Source: Syntrophorhabdaceae bacterium
GTDB lineage: Bacteria; Desulfobacterota; Syntrophorhabdia; Syntrophorhabdales; Syntrophorhabdaceae
Direction: 5' to 3'
Length of the DNA: 64,000 nt
Assembly (NCBI GenBank): GCA_963665295.1
Contig: OY762209.1
Span: forward strand, 3,136,001 to 3,200,000
A model generated the notes under the pieces. The model had not been told where the DNA came from. It searched no databases and was given only the letters and a program-made list of their open reading frames with translations. Below, piece after piece: positions 3,359-25,763 of this stretch (positions are counted from its first letter, which is position 1; every line of letters starts with the position of its first letter). The translations under genes and the position numbers were made by a program.

Positions 3359-3678
3359 TGGGCGAAGGGATCAAAAGGGGTGTGTCGATGTTCGGATTTT
3401 CACGAAATAGATGCACCCCGTACCTGAAGGGGGGGTGGCAGGGGTGCAGCCTATTTCAGTGAGCGACCTCCCTCCCTTCTGAATACCAAATGCTGTGTCG
3501 GAGAGATTAGCCACAAAACCTTACTAAACGCTGAACGGTCAACTCCGTGCCGCGTATATATTCTTTTCACTCACGGATGTTCGTGACATTCTGCCGTGCA
3601 ACCGTCACTTATTCCGTACTCATGTTAATATATAACAAATCGGAGAAAAAGATGAAATAGGTTGATTTCTGACTTAAG

Positions 3679-3696
3679 TGTAAGTATTTTCCTACA
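3679..3696. promoter_or_regulatory. GacA/UvrY-box-like palindrome TGTAAG-TATTTT-CCTACA
   Basis: One mismatch from TGTAAG-N6-CTTACA; lies about 15 nt past the stop codon of a UvrY-like regulator. Confidence 0.5.
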
Positions 3697-3710
3697 AATA
3701 TTAAGGGCAC

Positions 3711-4340
3711 TCATTCGACGAGGAGATTCTTGATTGCATAATGGGTAATTTCCGCGTTGCTCTTGAAGTTCATCTTTTCCAGAATGCGGGAACGGTATGT
3801 GCTGATCGTCTTCACACTGAGCGCCATTTCCGTGGCTATATCGCTTAATCGCATGCCTCCGGCAATCATTAACATCACCTGATATTCGCGATTGGACAGA
3901 CGGAGGTGGGACGCCTTGCCGTCTGATTCGAGTTCGAAGGCCAGTCGCTCGGCAAGACTTGCGCTCACGTATTTTCCCCTGTTGAGTATCGTCCGGATGG
4001 CTTTCACCAGTTCCTCCGGGGCGCTCTCCTTGGTCAGGTATCCTGCGGCCCCTGTCCTCAGTGCCCGGACCGCGTACTGGTCCTCGGGGTGGATGCTGAG
4101 GACCAGTACCGGGAGCTTCGGATACTTCTGCTTCAAGTCCTTCAACACGTCGAGCCCGCTCTTCCCGGGCATTGTAATATCGAGAATCAGTATATCCCAT
4201 ACTCCCCTTTGCACGAGATCCAGCACCTCGTTGGCATCTCTCGCTTCGCCGGGAACGGCCATGTCCGGTTCGTCGGAAAGGATCTGCTTCAAGCCCCGAC
4301 GCACGATGGGGTGGTCATCGGCAATGAGAATTCTTATCAT
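3711..4340 (-). CDS. NarL/UvrY-family response regulator (REC + LuxR HTH)
   Basis: MIRILIADDH, ILDITMPG phospho-Asp, LSNREYQV...LSVKTISTYRSRILEKM; no kinase nearby. Confidence 0.95.
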   Translation of the reverse strand: MIRILIADDHPIVRRGLKQILSDEPDMAVPGEARDANEVLDLVQRGVWDILILDITMPGKSGLDVLKDLKQKYPKLPVLVLSIHPEDQYAVRALRTGAAGYLTKESAPEELVKAIRTILNRGKYVSASLAERLAFELESDGKASHLRLSNREYQVMLMIAGGMRLSDIATEMALSVKTISTYRSRILEKMNFKSNAEITHYAIKNLLVE

Positions 4341-4361
4341 GAAACGCGCCTCCCTTGACTC

Positions 4362-20457: not shown

Positions 20458-21810
20458 TCAGAAGAAATACCACGCGGCGACTCTGAAGGAGTGTAATGTC
20501 GCATCTTTGCTGAGAGTCGGAATGACGCCCAGGCCCGACGGATCGGGGACTGTCCCGTAGTTCGCGTAGCGGGTGGCGAAGTACGCGTACTCCGTGGCAA
20601 ATCTCACTGAATCATTTACGTCATAGCAGAGGCTCACAATGTACTGGGTAGCGTTCTGCACTGTATTGGCGTGGGCGAAGCGGGAAGTGAGAGAGGTCTT
20701 GGCCGCATCATAGGCGCTGCTTGTGTCGTTTCTGAGATAACCGTACCAGCCGCTTACGAACAGCCTATCGGTAAGGTGGTATGATATCTGTCCCCAGCCA
20801 CCGTACATCTTTGGTGCGACGAAATCCGGGGTCTGGCCGGCAGGCTGGGAAGGCGGTGTGGTGAGGTCGCTCGGTCTCGCATAGGAGCCGGCGGAGTATG
20901 CCCTCGACTGGAGCCATGAGGGGTTCTGCGCGACAAAGAGGATGCCCGATACAGACAACGCTCCCGCCTTGCCGGATGGTTTTTGGGAGACTATGGGGAC
21001 GAAACCTTTGAGCGCGAGTCCCCAGGAATCCACATCCTTGTACGCATAGGTGATCGAGGTGGGGGCGCCGGCGGGGCCCGTGTACTGGGTGGCCCACCTT
21101 TTCTCCTGTCCGTAGAAGGCATCGATGTTCCACTGCAATTTCCACGAACCGATGGTTCCCCACCTGTCCGATGACCAGCCCAGAGAGGTTTCGTAGAAGG
21201 GCATCTGACTCGCGGTAAACCCGTCCACCACCCCTGTGTCGGTCATCGAGCGGTTGCTTCCGAGGGTATTGGTGGGAGACAAGAGGGCAAAAGAAAGGTT
21301 CCAATCCTTGGCAAATTTTCGTTCTACCCTGATCATGGGCTGGCGGCTCCCCTTCACGAAGGGAGTAAGGTCGTTGCCGCTCGTGATCATATTGGCGTAA
21401 GTGGGAAGGAAACCCCACTTTTGAAAGGTGTGCCCGATAACAAGCTTTGTCTGAGGCCAGTCGAAGGTCATGAAGGCGTGTCTCATGGCAAAGGAACCCC
21501 TTGGGGCGCCCGCATACACGCCATTGAAGTCGCCTTCGACAAAGGCCGATGTTTTTGCGCCCCATGCCTCCGGGCCTCGCGTAAGGAAGTTTATACGGGA
21601 CCCGCTGGAATACCCCGAGGTTATGCCTTCCTTCCCGTTGGGGTCCCTGTAGGCGCCGGACCCGTGCCTGCCCTGGTCCGTGTAATCCATCTCAAGCTTG
21701 ACATAACCGCCGATAGTAAGATCCCACATGCTTGTGGCGCTGCCCGCGAGAGCAGCGGCCGGGGCGGCAAGGAGCAGCAATAGATGCAGAATAATGATGA
21801 TTTTTGTCAT
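20458..21810 (-). CDS. DcaP-like outer-membrane porin
   Basis: Signal peptide, TIGGYVKLEM, SRINF, AFVEGDF, MRHAF, RQPMIR, aromatic C-terminus WYFF. Confidence 0.75.
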   Translation of the reverse strand: MTKIIIILHLLLLLAAPAAALAGSATSMWDLTIGGYVKLEMDYTDQGRHGSGAYRDPNGKEGITSGYSSGSRINFLTRGPEAWGAKTSAFVEGDFNGVYAGAPRGSFAMRHAFMTFDWPQTKLVIGHTFQKWGFLPTYANMITSGNDLTPFVKGSRQPMIRVERKFAKDWNLSFALLSPTNTLGSNRSMTDTGVVDGFTASQMPFYETSLGWSSDRWGTIGSWKLQWNIDAFYGQEKRWATQYTGPAGAPTSITYAYKDVDSWGLALKGFVPIVSQKPSGKAGALSVSGILFVAQNPSWLQSRAYSAGSYARPSDLTTPPSQPAGQTPDFVAPKMYGGWGQISYHLTDRLFVSGWYGYLRNDTSSAYDAAKTSLTSRFAHANTVQNATQYIVSLCYDVNDSVRFATEYAYFATRYANYGTVPDPSGLGVIPTLSKDATLHSFRVAAWYFF

Positions 21811-21978
21811 TCGTGGCGTCACGCTTCCATTAACGGGGGTGATCTCCTGAAAGGCGTGGCCGGTGGGTATTCGTCCGAAAGTCTTCGGGAGTCCGGTGAT
21901 AGATAGCATAGGGATGCGGAGGTTGTCAAATCATTCGGTGGGGTTTGCCGGAAAGTTTCCGTGAATGGCTGGACGCCC

Positions 21979-22012
21979 TTGACATTCAAATAATCTATGT
22001 TAATGTTATAAT
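21979..22012 (+). promoter_or_regulatory. promoter of the peptide/radical SAM operon
   Basis: TTGACA at 21979 and an extended -10 TGTTATAAT at 22004-22012. Confidence 0.6.
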
Positions 22013-22062
22013 TATAGCCTGAAGATATGAACAAAAATTTACGCGAAAGGAGGTGAGAAGCC

Positions 22063-22185
22063 ATGAAGAAGATCCTGAGTAAAGAGGTCCTTGAGAAAGA
22101 GGCATCCTTTTGGACCACGATGAAGGAGGCTCTCAAAGAGAGTCCGGCGAAAGAATGCCGCAAGTGAAAGAGCTGAAAGAGCTAG
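22063..22185 (+). CDS. putative selenocysteine-containing RiPP precursor MKKILSKEVLEKEASFWTTMKEALKESPAKECRKUKSUKS
   Basis: AAAGGAGGTGA RBS, ATG at 22063, in-frame TGA at 22165 and 22174 in C-x-x-U-x-x-U spacing, TAG at 22183, SECIS-like hairpin next, radical SAM/SPASM gene downstream. Confidence 0.8.
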
Positions 22186-22186
22186 C

Positions 22187-22203
22187 GTTGCAGGTTCTGC
22201 AAC
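22187..22203 (+). promoter_or_regulatory. bacterial SECIS-like hairpin
   Basis: GTTGCAG-GTT-CTGCAAC, near-identical to the E. coli fdhF minimal SECIS GGUUGCAGGUCUGCACC; 10 and 19 nt after the two UGAs. Confidence 0.75.
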
Positions 22204-22213
22204 CCAAAAAGAA

Positions 22214-22247
22214 GAGGCAGATATGACGGAGTTGTCATATCTGCCTC
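22214..22247 (+). terminator. intercistronic 14-bp stem-loop
   Basis: GAGGCAGATATGAC-GGAGTT-GTCATATCTGCCTC, no strong U tract. Confidence 0.7.
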
Positions 22248-22275
22248 CTTGCATCAATGGAGGTGGGAAAAACGG

Positions 22276-23334
22276 ATGTCCGTTAATCGAGCATATTCAT
22301 TCTTCGTCCAGTGGCACCTGACGGAAAGATGCAACCTCGCGTGTACCCACTGTTACCAAGACAAGGCAAGAGCAACGGAGATGACCCTGGAGCAGATAGT
22401 GGGGGCCATGTCCGACGTGGTCGACATGCTGGACTCATGGTCCGGTGCGTACGACATGGAATTTTCCCGGAGTTTCAACATTACCGGCGGGGAGCCCTTT
22501 CTTAGAAAAGACCTCTTTGCGATCCTCGAGGCGGCGGCGTACCACGGCTTTGACAATTATCTTCTCACCAACGGGACACTTATCGACAGGGAGAAGGCCC
22601 GCACCCTGTCCGACCTCGGCGTCCGGGGTGTCCAGGTGAGTTTTGAGGGGCCCAGGGAGGTTCATGAAGCGATAAGGGGCAAAGGAACCTTTCCTCTCTC
22701 CGTCGCAGGCGTATGTCATCTCCGGGATGCGGGAATACCGGTGACCATGAACGTCACCCTTTCTTCTCTCAATGCGCCCTATCTCCCGGAACTTATGAAC
22801 CTTGCCTCCGACCTGGGCGTGCCGAGGCTCGGGTTTTCGAGGCTGGTGCCTTCAGGCAGGGGGATGGGCCTTCTTGGAAGCATGCTTTCAAGAAGGGAAG
22901 TGAAAACTCTCTATGAGGAAATATTTCGTCGCACCCGTGAGGACGTGGAAGTGGTGACCGGCGATCCCGTGGCGGCCCAGATGGTTGTGCCCCCGGACAC
23001 GGAGGGAGCCGACGCAGAGGGTATGGAGACTGTGCCCAACGGAGGGTGTGCCGCGGGCGTTTCCGGTCTGACGTTTCTCCCTGACGGCACGATCACCCCC
23101 TGCCGGAGACTGAATATTCCTCTTGGTAATGTGCGGACCGATTCGCTCCGTGAGATATGGGCAACTTCGCCGGTGCTGGAAGGATTGAGGACGAAAAGCG
23201 CATATAAAGGAAAGTGCGGGACCTGCCGGCGATGGTCGGCTTGCCGAGGATGCAGGGCGATAGCCTATCAATACTCGCTCTCAAGAGGTATGGGTGACTA
23301 CCTTTCAGATGATCCTCAGTGCTTTATCGAGTAG
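22276..23334 (+). CDS. radical SAM/SPASM domain protein, putative peptide maturase
   Basis: QWHLTERCNLACTHC, TGGEP, and a 7-Cys SPASM (GCAAG...PC...CGTC-x5-CRGC...DPQC); GGAGGTGG RBS. Confidence 0.92.
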   Translation: MSVNRAYSFFVQWHLTERCNLACTHCYQDKARATEMTLEQIVGAMSDVVDMLDSWSGAYDMEFSRSFNITGGEPFLRKDLFAILEAAAYHGFDNYLLTNGTLIDREKARTLSDLGVRGVQVSFEGPREVHEAIRGKGTFPLSVAGVCHLRDAGIPVTMNVTLSSLNAPYLPELMNLASDLGVPRLGFSRLVPSGRGMGLLGSMLSRREVKTLYEEIFRRTREDVEVVTGDPVAAQMVVPPDTEGADAEGMETVPNGGCAAGVSGLTFLPDGTITPCRRLNIPLGNVRTDSLREIWATSPVLEGLRTKSAYKGKCGTCRRWSACRGCRAIAYQYSLSRGMGDYLSDDPQCFIE

Positions 23335-23553: not shown

Positions 23554-23904
23554 TTATTTGTAGGAGACCCACATGGCGTAGTTGATGAATTTCACTGTCT
23601 TATATTCGCCCTTTACCATGGAGCCCACTTTCAACCCTTTTAGCCGGTTGTAATCCTGCTGAAACTTTGCGTAGTCGTCCTGAAGGGTAAGATTACCCGT
23701 TGCAGTCTTCACCACGACGCAGTGGCACATTATATCGTGGCTAACGACCGTGCCCTCAAAAGGCATCGCCTTCGCCATGGCCAACTGATTCTCAAACACC
23801 TCTCCCTCGCCGCTCGGGGAACCCAAATTCGCCTGCGCCATTACTCCCGTTATAAACCCGAAGCTCAAAAACACCGCCAATGCAATAACCAACATCTTCC
23901 TCAT
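23554..23904 (-). CDS. small exported beta-rich protein with CHC motif
   Basis: AGGAGG RBS, classic signal peptide ending VMA, FEGTVVSHDIMCHCVVVK. Confidence 0.85.
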   Translation of the reverse strand: MRKMLVIALAVFLSFGFITGVMAQANLGSPSGEGEVFENQLAMAKAMPFEGTVVSHDIMCHCVVVKTATGNLTLQDDYAKFQQDYNRLKGLKVGSMVKGEYKTVKFINYAMWVSYK

Positions 23905-24164
23905 TTTGTACCTCCTGTTTTATAGGTATTTGAAAACCATCATTTACTTCTGAACATATGGCTCACCCATCCTCTTGTCAAGTGGGCCGGTGATCATGGG
24001 GCGCAAAAGAAAAGACTTTGATACCCGGGAAATCCGTAATCGTCTGCGATAAGTCCCAAGGTGTCGTTTTCCGATTAATACGGGCGTTTACGGCTGATTT
24101 CCAATTACCCGGCAAGGTCGTGGGCCGAAGCTTGCCTGAAGCGGTGTACGTTGATACCCGGGCT

Positions 24165-25333
24165 TCAATAAAGAAACATGGGTTTGCCGAGGGTATCCCG
24201 CACCTTGGGCCTGTATTCCTCAAGATCGTAGAGGGCGGTAACGTCGACCTGTTTTCTCGCAGCGCCTACAAGGTCGAGAGGGACGGTCGTATATATTCCC
24301 TGTTGGAGGGCGACCATTCTTCCTGTGTGGCCCATAGCTATCTGGTCGAGGGCGAGGTTGCCATAGGAGACCGCGACCATTCTGTCCAGGGAATCGGGCG
24401 CGCCGGAACGCATGATGTAAGCCAGTTGTTGGTAGATGATGTTGATGCCCGTTCTGTCCTTGATCTCGTGTGCCACTATGTTGCCTATGCCTCCGAGCTT
24501 CTTGTGGCCGTACGCATCTGCCTCACCACTTTCGAGAATCAGCCCTCCCAGTTGGCGTGCGCCTTCAGAAATGGTCATTATGGCATAGTGCGACGGGTTC
24601 CGTGAGCGGTCTTCGACGAGAAAACGGGCGACCCGTCTACGTCAAAGGGCACCTCCGATATTAACGCCCGGTCCACGTCAGCGAGGTACGCGGCAAACAA
24701 GGAGGTTTCCCCCGAGTTTCTGCCGAATAGTTCCACCACGCATATGCGCTCGTGGGAGCCCGCGGTGGTCCTGAGTGCGTGGATTGAGTCCACGGAGCGT
24801 GTTACCGCGGTCGAAAAGCCGATACAGAAGCCGGTGCCGAACACGTCATTATCCATTGTTTTCGGAATGGCGACAATCTGAAACCCTGCCTTGTGGAGAT
24901 GATTTGCGTAGCTCAGAGTGTCGTCTCCCCCGATGGCGATAATTGCATCCAGCGAGAGATAATCAAGCACATCCATTATATGGGGAGTGCAATCGACCGT
25001 ATTGCCCGGACCTGTAATGCGCTTGCTTTCCGGTATGAAGTCGGGGACTTCGCCAGGCTTCATATTTGCGGGATTGGTCCGTGAGGTGTGGAGAACCGTT
25101 CCACCCGTGCGGTCGATGGTGCGAACCCTTTCCGCAGGCAGGGGCATGGTCCATTTTTCCACTGAACCGGGATCGTCGGGGTTAAGGCACATAAGGCCCA
25201 TCCACCCCCTCCTGATGCCTATGATATCGATCTTGTGGGTGGACGCCCGTGTCACGACCGCCTTGATCGCCACATTGAGGCCGGGCACGTCACCGCCACC
25301 TGTAAGTATCCCGATATGCTGTTTGTTGGTCAT
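24165..25333 (-). pseudogene. pfkA: 6-phosphofructokinase (PPi-type signature), frameshifted near 24632
   Basis: [34 protein letters not shown] and ELFGR in one frame; [25 protein letters not shown]...RSGAPDSLDR continues in another frame. Confidence 0.85.
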
Positions 25334-25763
25334 CCGGTTCTCCTCCCTTTGGTATTGACTACGTGAGGACACGCATTCCTGTGGTCGGCCGACGGGTGAA
25401 CGGTGTCGCTGTCATTTTCTCTACCTCGGTGTAAACCTGTTTCCCCTTCTTCATCGGTTTCCATTCATCATTTTGCCGGTTTGATGCTGATTATGCCATA
25501 TTCGCTCATCTGAAGGCGATCTCCTGGATCAACCCGAGGTGTTGGGGGACCGGATAGTACGAGACTCGGCGGGAGGAGAAAAATGGTCGCGCAAGAACGG
25601 GGGCTGCGCGGCCACGCTGTCCACGATTTTTCACTGTGTCCATTTATAATGCGAATGTATGCGTAGGGATGAAGATTGTCAATATCGGCCCGGCCGATTG
25701 TCTTGGTCCCCGCCAATCGTGTCTCGGGACCGCGTGCCGGCGCGGATGTAAAGAAAGGAGGCC

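Follow-up and report, generated by a model that had tools for sequence, protein, structure and literature searches.

A probable two-gene cassette encoding a di-selenocysteine peptide and a cognate radical SAM/SPASM enzyme in a Syntrophorhabdaceae genome

A stretch of 64,000 nt from a Syntrophorhabdaceae bacterium (GenBank assembly GCA_963665295.1, contig OY762209.1, positions 3,136,001 to 3,200,000 of the forward strand; hereafter the window, to whose first letter the coordinates below refer) contains a very short reading frame with two internal TGA codons directly upstream of a gene for a radical S-adenosylmethionine (SAM) enzyme with a SPASM domain. The question raised by this locus is whether both TGA codons are read as selenocysteine (Sec, U) and whether the peptide obtained in this way is the substrate of the enzyme encoded next to it. 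The locus was judged likely to be a two-gene cassette in which a di-Sec peptide is encoded together with a cognate radical SAM/SPASM enzyme that modifies its Cys/Sec core.

The peptide gene (22063-22185, + strand), composed of 40 codons and a TAG stop, is preceded by the Shine-Dalgarno sequence AAAGGAGGTGA (22046-22056, + strand, read from the sequence, 6 nt before the ATG) and, when translated with TGA=U, yields the lysine-rich peptide MKKILSKEVLEKEASFWTTMKEALKESPAKECRK-U-KS-U-KS, the last nine residues of which follow the pattern C-x-K-U-K-x-U-K-x. The unit TGAAAGAGC is present twice in tandem and is followed by the TAG. The first in-frame UGA (UGA1, Sec35, 22165-22167) and the second (UGA2, Sec38, 22174-22176) are located 19 nt and 10 nt, respectively, before the stem of a hairpin of the Sec insertion sequence (SECIS) type, GUUGCA-GGUUC-UGCAAC (22187-22203, + strand), which was identified by folding just 3' of the TAG (22183-22185, read from the sequence). 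A longer hairpin, a probable attenuator or terminator (22212-22249, + strand, stem GGCAGAUAUGAC...GUCAUAUCUGCC, also from folding), lies between the peptide gene and the gene for the 352-residue enzyme (22276-23334, + strand, identified by Pfam and NCBIfam scans), the ATG of which is 90 nt past the peptide TAG and is preceded at 9 nt by GGAGGTG.

A first-pass annotation of this DNA had already described the strong ribosome-binding site with an ATG at 22063, the two TGA codons in a frame closed by a TAG, and a radical SAM/SPASM gene 90 nt downstream, all of which were recovered here. It had also remarked that the 40-residue frame was missing from the list of open reading frames (ORFs), which agrees with translation table 11 giving only a 34-residue form (22063..22167). 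The promoter that it assigned to the peptide gene was retained in part: a promoter-like site (21985-22012, + strand), in which 16 nt separate TTCAAA from TATAAT and the extended -10 element reads TG-n-TATAAT, was located by a consensus scan with 10 of 12 consensus matches, two sites being present in the region against 1.0 expected, and as a consensus match only it is to be regarded as a candidate promoter. The peptide core pattern occurs once in the source genome (5.5 Mb in a single contig), and of 121 loci taken from other genomes, 100 contain the same peptide gene with its TGA codons and the hairpin, from which it follows that the arrangement is beyond chance.

Translation through the TGA codons was examined in 84 distinct peptide genes, for the selection of which a TGA at UGA1 was required, and in a profile search (nhmmer) carried out without this requirement, which returned 101 matches, every one with TGA at the first position. 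No gaps were needed to align the 84 copies between the Cys codon and the final sense codon. In this alignment the Cys (84 genes; TGC 65, TGT 19) is followed by a first variable residue (His 61, Arg 15, Gln 5, Leu 3), a first Lys (83, with one Asn; AAG 58, AAA 25, AAT 1) and the first TGA (84), then by a second Lys (82, with one Asn and one Ser; AAG 74, AAA 8, AAC 1, AGC 1), a second variable residue (Ser 43, Gly 32, Glu 6, Ala 3) and the second TGA (84), and lastly by a third Lys (84; AAG 71, AAA 13) and a third variable residue (Ser 59, Thr 11, Gly 8, Asn 4, Ala 2). No extra residue follows in 77 genes and one follows in 7, an in-frame stop being reached 3 or 4 codons past UGA2 in every one of the 84; this final stop is TAA in 42, TAG in 16 and TGA in 26. 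Ser is encoded by both the AGY and the TCN families at both variable sites past UGA1 (AGC, AGT and TCC at the second variable position; AGC, AGT, TCA, TCC and TCT at the third), and the changes past UGA1 are mostly synonymous or conservative and are located at third codon positions. When TGA serves as the final stop, its distance to the hairpin stem is 1 nt, and this triplet thus varies freely only where a SECIS could not act.

Because the final stop varies while the internal TGAs are fixed, because Ser switches between codon families and because the remaining changes are synonymous or conservative, the frame is concluded from the alignment to continue in translation through both UGAs. The protein-level conservation past the first TGA that had been anticipated was found over six to seven codons ending in a variable stop, and the gene thus displays what is expected of a selenoprotein, a UGA conserved in frame and followed by coding sequence that is conserved as well. 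Most likely, therefore, this tiny gene encodes a 40-residue peptide with two selenocysteines that normal annotation shortens, and public protein sets were found to contain only 34-residue forms, as two proteins both named 'hypothetical protein'. An ORF in the +1 frame ('MPQVKELKEL...'), present in most loci, was set aside as a by-product because it runs into TAA after two codons where the His codon is CAT (L034, L051 and L059); its tail is not conserved. Separately, 77 of 87 distinct genes have an A immediately in front of the Cys codon, whatever the residue encoded (site given as window 22060-22062; codons GTA 39, ATA 10, AAA 7, AGA 5, ACA 5 and others), which is far below the usual wobble variability, and neither a pairing partner nor a conserved overlapping ORF was found for this A. 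One locus (L116) contains two copies of the peptide gene 1.8 kb apart (423-506 and about 2227-2310).

The hairpin behind the stop codon is, on comparative grounds, a conserved structure of the SECIS type. Its stem begins 10-12 nt past UGA2 in 76 of the 84 genes and exactly 10 nt past it in 51, and its six core pairs are formed in nearly all 84 sequences, with compensatory changes at four pairs; the closing pair 56:62 is CG in 37, UA in 28 and AU in 18 sequences of the alignment, pair 52:66 is UA in 72, CG in 6 and UG in 6, and pair 53:65 is UA in 80 and CG in 3. Covariation scored 0.294, whereas shuffles gave 0.107, with the observed value attained in none of 500, and sliding the partner columns gave 0.015-0.083; the hairpin helix was the sole consensus structure returned by RNAalifold for the 84-sequence alignment. 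In the window, the whole stretch with both hairpins folds at z = -5.8 versus shuffles. The loop starts with GGU in 75 of the 84 genes (GGUC, GGUUC, GGUCA, GGUCC or GGUCU), so that the nearby 3' hairpin with a G/U-containing apical loop that is looked for in selenoprotein genes is present. The same design is seen in the two fdhA-type genes of the host genome, in which the hairpin GUCGCC-GGUCU-GGCG(C/G)C lies 12 nt past the UGA, and this stem is even shared by some peptide genes, for example that of L043 (GUCGCC-GGUC-GGCGAC). The likeness presumably extends to the SECIS of Escherichia coli fdhF.

The SECIS-like hairpin proposed in the first-pass annotation is thereby upheld as conserved, covarying and similar to the host fdhA SECIS, and the Sec machinery for which that annotation had called was found in full in the host genome, namely selA (582 bits), selB (372 bits, cut-off 242), selD in two copies and a single tRNA-SeC (anticodon tca). 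One of the selD copies and two formate-dehydrogenase-like genes each contain an in-frame TGA; these three genes (G000:C1:5230927-5231841, 5310425-5311156 and 3036039-3036761) are outside the window and have a hairpin 11-12 nt behind the TGA. Co-occurrence of the peptide family with selB gives no information, as 54 of the 61 genomes contain selB.

Between the two genes, most loci contain a second hairpin with a 12-18 bp stem starting GGCAGAUAUG and then a U run, which is probably a terminator or attenuator in a position familiar from many peptide-maturase operons. The + strand U run is poor in this window (CCUCCUUGC), and in seven loci (L030, L031, L033, L036, L038, L088 and L099) the second hairpin is missing and the enzyme ORF follows directly after the SECIS. 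As a side observation, the 5' arm of this terminator-like hairpin keeps GGCAGAUAUGRC in Nitrospirota-labelled and Desulfobacterota-type loci alike, a conservation that exceeds what a terminator requires. An Rfam scan of 21900-22400 yielded nothing near the gathering score, the best match being RsaE on the minus strand (24.4 bits vs 79).

Enzyme loci were collected from 60 relatives and, using a 17-orthologue alignment, from a species-genome collection (best 80 of 441 relatives), and across these genomes the peptide and the enzyme co-occur as judged from sequence. In 92 of the 107 enzyme loci, a profile search detected the peptide gene and the hairpin. Both genes are held by 23 of the 60 relatives, the enzyme only by 2 and neither by 34, and in the remaining one (G059) the peptide is followed only by enzyme residues 4-106 on a short contig; three more pattern matches (G018, G046 and G054) appear unlike the family. 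The 15 enzyme loci in which the peptide gene was not found comprise four with less than 700 nt upstream (L048, L055, L085 and L102), two in incomplete metagenome-assembled genomes (MAGs), one outlier of 41% identity (L037) and eight with a full upstream flank, seven of which constitute one Nitrospirota-labelled subclade, the eighth (L108) being placed elsewhere in the tree. In all 8 of the genomes searched for these full-flank loci, the core pattern occurs exactly once elsewhere (reversed control, 0), and the unlinked copies, which stand beside unrelated neighbours, are complete in having the leader, both TGAs and the hairpin. The locus thus combines an encoded leader/core precursor with a co-occurring modifying enzyme, as in a peptide made on the ribosome and modified after translation (RiPP). 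The loci come from genomes labelled Nitrospirota/Thermodesulfovibrionales, Syntrophorhabdus, Desulfobaccales, Desulfobulbia and others; the sole locus record labelled neither MAG nor uncultured isolate is that of Syntrophorhabdus aromaticivorans UI (L079), through which the system may be open to experiment.

Membership of the enzyme in the radical SAM superfamily with a SPASM domain is indicated by its Pfam scores (Radical_SAM PF04055, 81.3 bits, cut-off 29.5; SPASM PF13186, 40.6 bits, cut-off 21.5) and by the cysteines that are invariant in 17 orthologues, which comprise a CxxxCxxC motif (C19, C23 and C26) and exactly seven more (C258, C276, C314, C317, C323, C326 and C349) corresponding to the seven-Cys SPASM motif. 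The radical SAM core begins at about residue 11, and a RiPP recognition element (RRE)/PqqD domain is absent from the Pfam scan. No curated family was found for the enzyme, the best NCBIfam matches being NirJ2 (181.1 bits) and AhbD (175.8 bits), both with cut-offs of 500, and the SbtM model TIGR04082 gave 126.8 bits (cut-off 350) with only model positions 196-516 matched. The names of orthologues are generic; among the best-scoring 120 out of 1998 proteins found at E<=1e-60 they read 'radical SAM protein', 'AdoMet-dependent heme synthase' or 'radical SAM protein with 4Fe4S-binding SPASM domain'. The nearest solved proteins by profile are SkfB (3.5e-25), PqqE, anSME and CteB, and the nearest solved folds are SkfB, SuiB, anSME, CteB and PqqE, with template modelling (TM) scores of 0.6-0.7 for a model with a mean predicted local distance difference test (pLDDT) value of 76.6. 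A tree from which matches covering less than 300 residues had been dropped unites the 104 orthologues in a single long-branched clade that is set apart from its outgroup of AhbD-like paralogues, and the enzyme is accordingly assigned by phylogeny and profile scores to a family of its own, separate from SbtM and AhbD.

Binding of the leader by the enzyme is supported by structure prediction. The 34-residue table 11 part of the peptide (alignment of 78) and the enzyme (alignment of 17) were used as input, and a complex score of 0.84-0.86 was obtained as compared with 0.02 for the best of three controls; of 157 solved complexes, 116 attain the mark applied to this score, as do 2 of 215 mismatched pairs, a calibration that holds roughly because own alignments were used. 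The runs share at least 84% of contacts, with a partner pLDDT of at least 74. The lowest-error contacts are predicted between E13 and W17 of the peptide and W55, Y59, R292, W295 and A296 of the enzyme. E13 and W17 are invariant, together with C32 and K34, in the 78 distinct leaders of other loci, and on the enzyme side W55, Y59, R292 and W295 are invariant and A296 nearly so. The earlier suggestion of a separate family is supported by the placement of the enzyme in a clade of its own and by its predicted binding to the peptide leader.

SbtA/SbtM is the one selenium-peptide/radical SAM pair described in the text consulted (PMC9204691); SbtM converts Gly-Cys/Sec into a thio(seleno)oxazole, and the Sec of SbtA lies in a GGUG motif (PMC9204691, PMC11002830). 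To the extent covered by the same accessible text, this pair resembles the present one in having a short peptide with at least two UGA-encoded Sec, a SECIS right behind and an adjoining radical SAM/SPASM enzyme, and both are found in anaerobic Desulfobacterota-type bacteria (PMC9204691, PMC11002830). It differs in that the Sec of SbtA stands in G-G-U-G or S-G-U-G according to the portions of the sources consulted (PMC9204691, PMC13188914), whereas K-U-K-x-U-K is found in the 84 genes here; the Gly-Cys/Sec unit on which SbtM acts is absent from the present peptide, and the enzyme is without the roughly 195-residue N-terminal part of SbtM. When all six frames of the genome were searched with TIGR04081 (SbtA, cut-off 30.5 bits), the top score was 14.6 bits at another place and the locus itself went unmatched; with the SbtM score of 126.8 bits (below 350), this sets the pair apart from SbtA/SbtM and agrees with the initial opinion that the peptide does not look like SbtA. 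The peptide had no NCBIfam match at E<=10, including NF041114, NF041211, NF041115 and TIGR02605.

The maturases of SCIFF/ranthipeptides and sactipeptides (CteB, Tte1186, PapB and SkfB) are similar in that a peptide with a Cys-rich C-terminal core is paired in two genes with a SPASM or Twitch enzyme, and SkfB and CteB are among the nearest solved structures; the peptides there carry Cys and not natural Sec, and SCIFF models were not among the 25 best NCBIfam matches of the enzyme. CteB, SuiB and SkfB have an N-terminal peptide-binding domain. anSME is likewise a SPASM enzyme that acts without an RRE on a Cys in a bound peptide (profile E 1.8e-13, TM 0.64), but shares about 20% identity with the present enzyme and, in the alignment, has three Cys in a loop where the family described here has one, which leaves seven rather than eight conserved auxiliary-cluster Cys in the latter. 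Both auxiliary clusters of anSME are fully ligated by its eight Cys, and CteB leaves one site for a substrate Cys. By analogy, the enzyme may possess an open auxiliary-cluster site for Cys or Sec. According to the accessible text of their description, PapB and Tte1186 tolerate the exchange of Cys for Sec, the Se being bound to an Fe of an auxiliary cluster before a Se-C bond is made (PMC10177961).

The UxxU and 'UXX-star' selenoproteins (NF041115, TIGR02605, NF041114 and NF041211) share with the peptide two Sec three apart, or a Sec two residues from the C-terminus, and a SECIS necessarily placed in the 3' untranslated region, as far as the available part of the 2026 inventory describes them (PMC13188914), but they are domain proteins without a radical SAM partner. 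That inventory comprises 119 prokaryotic selenoprotein families, and the only short-peptide entry found in its available part is 'Selenobacteriocin TIGR04081, SGUG' (PMC13188914). A C-x-x-U-x-x-U peptide with a radical SAM partner was found neither in full-text literature searches nor in the available part of the 2026 inventory, and no Pfam or NCBIfam model names the peptide or the enzyme. Within the reach of these sources, the pair appears to be a real second selenium-containing modified-peptide family, distinct from SbtA/SbtM and uncatalogued in Pfam, NCBIfam, the literature searched and the 2026 inventory.

The following mechanism is proposed, of which recoding and leader recognition are reasonably supported. 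Both UGAs would be read as selenocysteine by the SelA/SelB/SelD/tRNA-Sec pathway, the single SECIS hairpin behind the stop codon serving both, and the intergenic hairpin would probably hold peptide transcripts above enzyme transcripts. The enzyme, without RRE/PqqD, would recognise the invariant K-E-A-x-F-W helix of the leader directly, after which the 5'-deoxyadenosyl radical and two auxiliary Fe-S clusters would modify the Cys/Sec core. For the reaction itself, our best guess is that an auxiliary cluster holds the selenolate while a C-H bond at or beside Sec/Cys is attacked, the outcome of which would be either a cross-link of the Se-C (or S-C) type or a Sec oxidised in the manner of SbtM or anSME. 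The product probably stays intracellular as a small redox-active or metal-binding selenopeptide, because no protease or exporter is conserved beside the cassette. More speculatively, and with a chance that we place clearly on the lower side, the modification might be a natural Se-C bond, either a selenoether cross-link, on which the first-pass annotation had speculated, or a selenium heterocycle, and the product an intracellular redox or metal-handling cofactor of strict anaerobes and not an exported antibiotic, with ICMT/PEMT-like processing or a thiol peroxidase partnership in some lineages.

Several observations count against a di-Sec peptide modified by the neighbouring enzyme. The evidence is comparative or modelled throughout, and the data favour no particular bond in the product. 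The peptide gene can sit apart from the enzyme gene, as in the unlinked copies described above, and it was not found in two enzyme-bearing MAGs (G011, 96% complete, and G045, 84% complete). Variants with one Sec occur: in L114, the single deviant among the 101 profile matches, the second TGA is replaced by TAA (...CRKUSS), and in L118 one 9-nt unit is missing, so that ...CHKUKS is followed by a TGA at the hairpin. The interchange of TGA with TGC that had been put forward as decisive was not borne out, a Cys codon in place of either Sec being found in none of the 100 loci with the gene, and the classic Sec/Cys test is consequently not applicable to this family. In 76 of 84 genes the distance from UGA1 to the stem is 19-21 nt, as compared with 12 nt in the fdhA genes, and UGA1, being 9 nt further from the stem than UGA2, is decoded with uncertain efficiency; a 34- or 37-residue product may be made too. 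In the predicted complex, core residues 28-34 are outside the confident contacts and the model lacks the Sec residues.

Three other explanations were weighed. Were the peptide to end at the first UGA (34 residues, ...C-R-K), with the repeated UGAAAGAGC units and the hairpins acting as a regulatory RNA or attenuator for the enzyme gene, the 34-residue ORF of table 11, the exclusively 34-residue forms in public protein sets and the terminator-like second hairpin of most loci would be accounted for, as would the high conservation of the nucleotide sequence, including the A before the Cys codon in 77 of 87 genes. Such an RNA would leave unexplained why the internal stops are never TAA or TAG in 84 genes when the third stop varies freely, why third positions vary and Ser changes between AGY and TCN past UGA1, why an in-frame stop always follows 3 or 4 codons past UGA2 (77 of 84 with no extra codon, 7 with one) and why the hairpin matches the host fdhA SECIS, and we consider termination at UGA1 improbable. 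We regard as unlikely, if a little less so, that the peptide is a true small selenoprotein with a redox or metal-binding C-x-x-U-x-x-U but no substrate, the enzyme acting elsewhere and the peptide being co-regulated or a helper. The strict co-occurrence of peptide and enzyme across genomes, the invariant leader residues predicted to lie on invariant enzyme residues and the identity of the nearest solved enzyme relatives as peptide maturases speak for a substrate, against which are to be set the unlinked peptide gene of one subclade, the lack of any RRE domain, protease or exporter, the frequency of redox genes among the neighbours (Tpx, superoxide dismutase, rubrerythrin and DsbH-like thioredoxin) and the CxxU and UxxU motifs, which are typical of redox selenoproteins in the accessible part of the inventory (PMC13188914).

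An identity of the enzyme as the heme synthase AhbD or a NirJ-type tetrapyrrole enzyme, with the small ORF irrelevant, carries the smallest probability of the three and is scarcely credible. NirJ2 (TIGR04055, 181.1 bits) and AhbD (TIGR04545, 175.8 bits) are indeed the best NCBIfam matches, and several orthologues are called 'AdoMet-dependent heme synthase' by the Joint Genome Institute, but both scores are far under the cut-off of 500, the enzyme is linked to the peptide, and separate paralogues of the host with 35-39% identity group with the AhbD-like outgroup, far from the clade. If the preferred explanation of a di-Sec peptide with its own maturase holds, the family would be common yet invisible to gene callers, would supply a natural Sec substrate for radical SAM chemistry and, for selenium biology, a case of two UGAs read with one SECIS behind the stop codon, and would add a missing entry to selenoproteome counts in anaerobes.

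Genes adjoining the cassette in other loci were surveyed. The 54 ORFs right behind the enzyme gene include 12 ICMT/PEMT-like membrane methyltransferases, 11 YceI proteins (10 on the same strand), 5 Redoxin/Tpx proteins (4 on the same strand), 3 ArgRS and 2 HAD proteins, the rest being mixed or without a family, and no universal third gene was found among them. Upstream genes in other loci encode, among others, a DsbH-like thioredoxin protein, B12-radical SAM enzymes, rubrerythrin, DJ-1 and a flavodiiron protein, and a recurring protease or exporter beside the cassette was not found in the survey. This mix of neighbours hints, from gene content, at a redox or membrane-linked role. The ICMT/PEMT-like genes (L042, L061, L070, L071, L076, L080, L083, L087, L093, L097, L098 and L100, at about 3530-4350) are on the same strand as the enzyme gene, which they often overlap or follow at a distance of ~12 nt, and their best NCBIfam matches are isoprenylcysteine O-methyltransferase and the methanethiol S-methyltransferase MddA, all far below the cut-offs; the methyltransferase may act on the peptide. 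Oxidative-stress genes also adjoin the cassette, encoding thiol peroxidase Tpx (190.7 bits, over the cut-off), superoxide dismutase, rubrerythrin, DJ-1/PfpI and flavodiiron protein (L091, L115, L116 and L120, at about 3610-4210; L075; L093; L095; L072).

In this window the peptide/enzyme pair stands alone in the neighbour survey. A 195-residue ORF (24018-24605, + strand) considered as a third cassette gene was rejected and taken as a probable shadow ORF antisense to the C-terminal part of a phosphofructokinase gene; it matched no Pfam family and is unlike the methyltransferases of other loci, and homologues of it lie behind the enzyme gene in L014 and L018. Downstream of the enzyme gene, a 116-residue ORF (23554-23904, - strand) has no relatives among the loci. 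Divergent from the peptide promoter-like site, a 483-residue ORF (20458-21909, - strand) has a signal-peptide-like N-terminus and no Pfam family, and a 62%-identical copy was found at the same place only in a genome of the same genus (G001). The phosphofructokinase gene (24165-25372, - strand) is convergent with the cassette and is split into two ORFs, with profile positions 2-198 in the ORF at 24581-25372 and positions 227-275 in that at 24168-24578, as a result of a frameshift or an assembly indel near 24580-24620.

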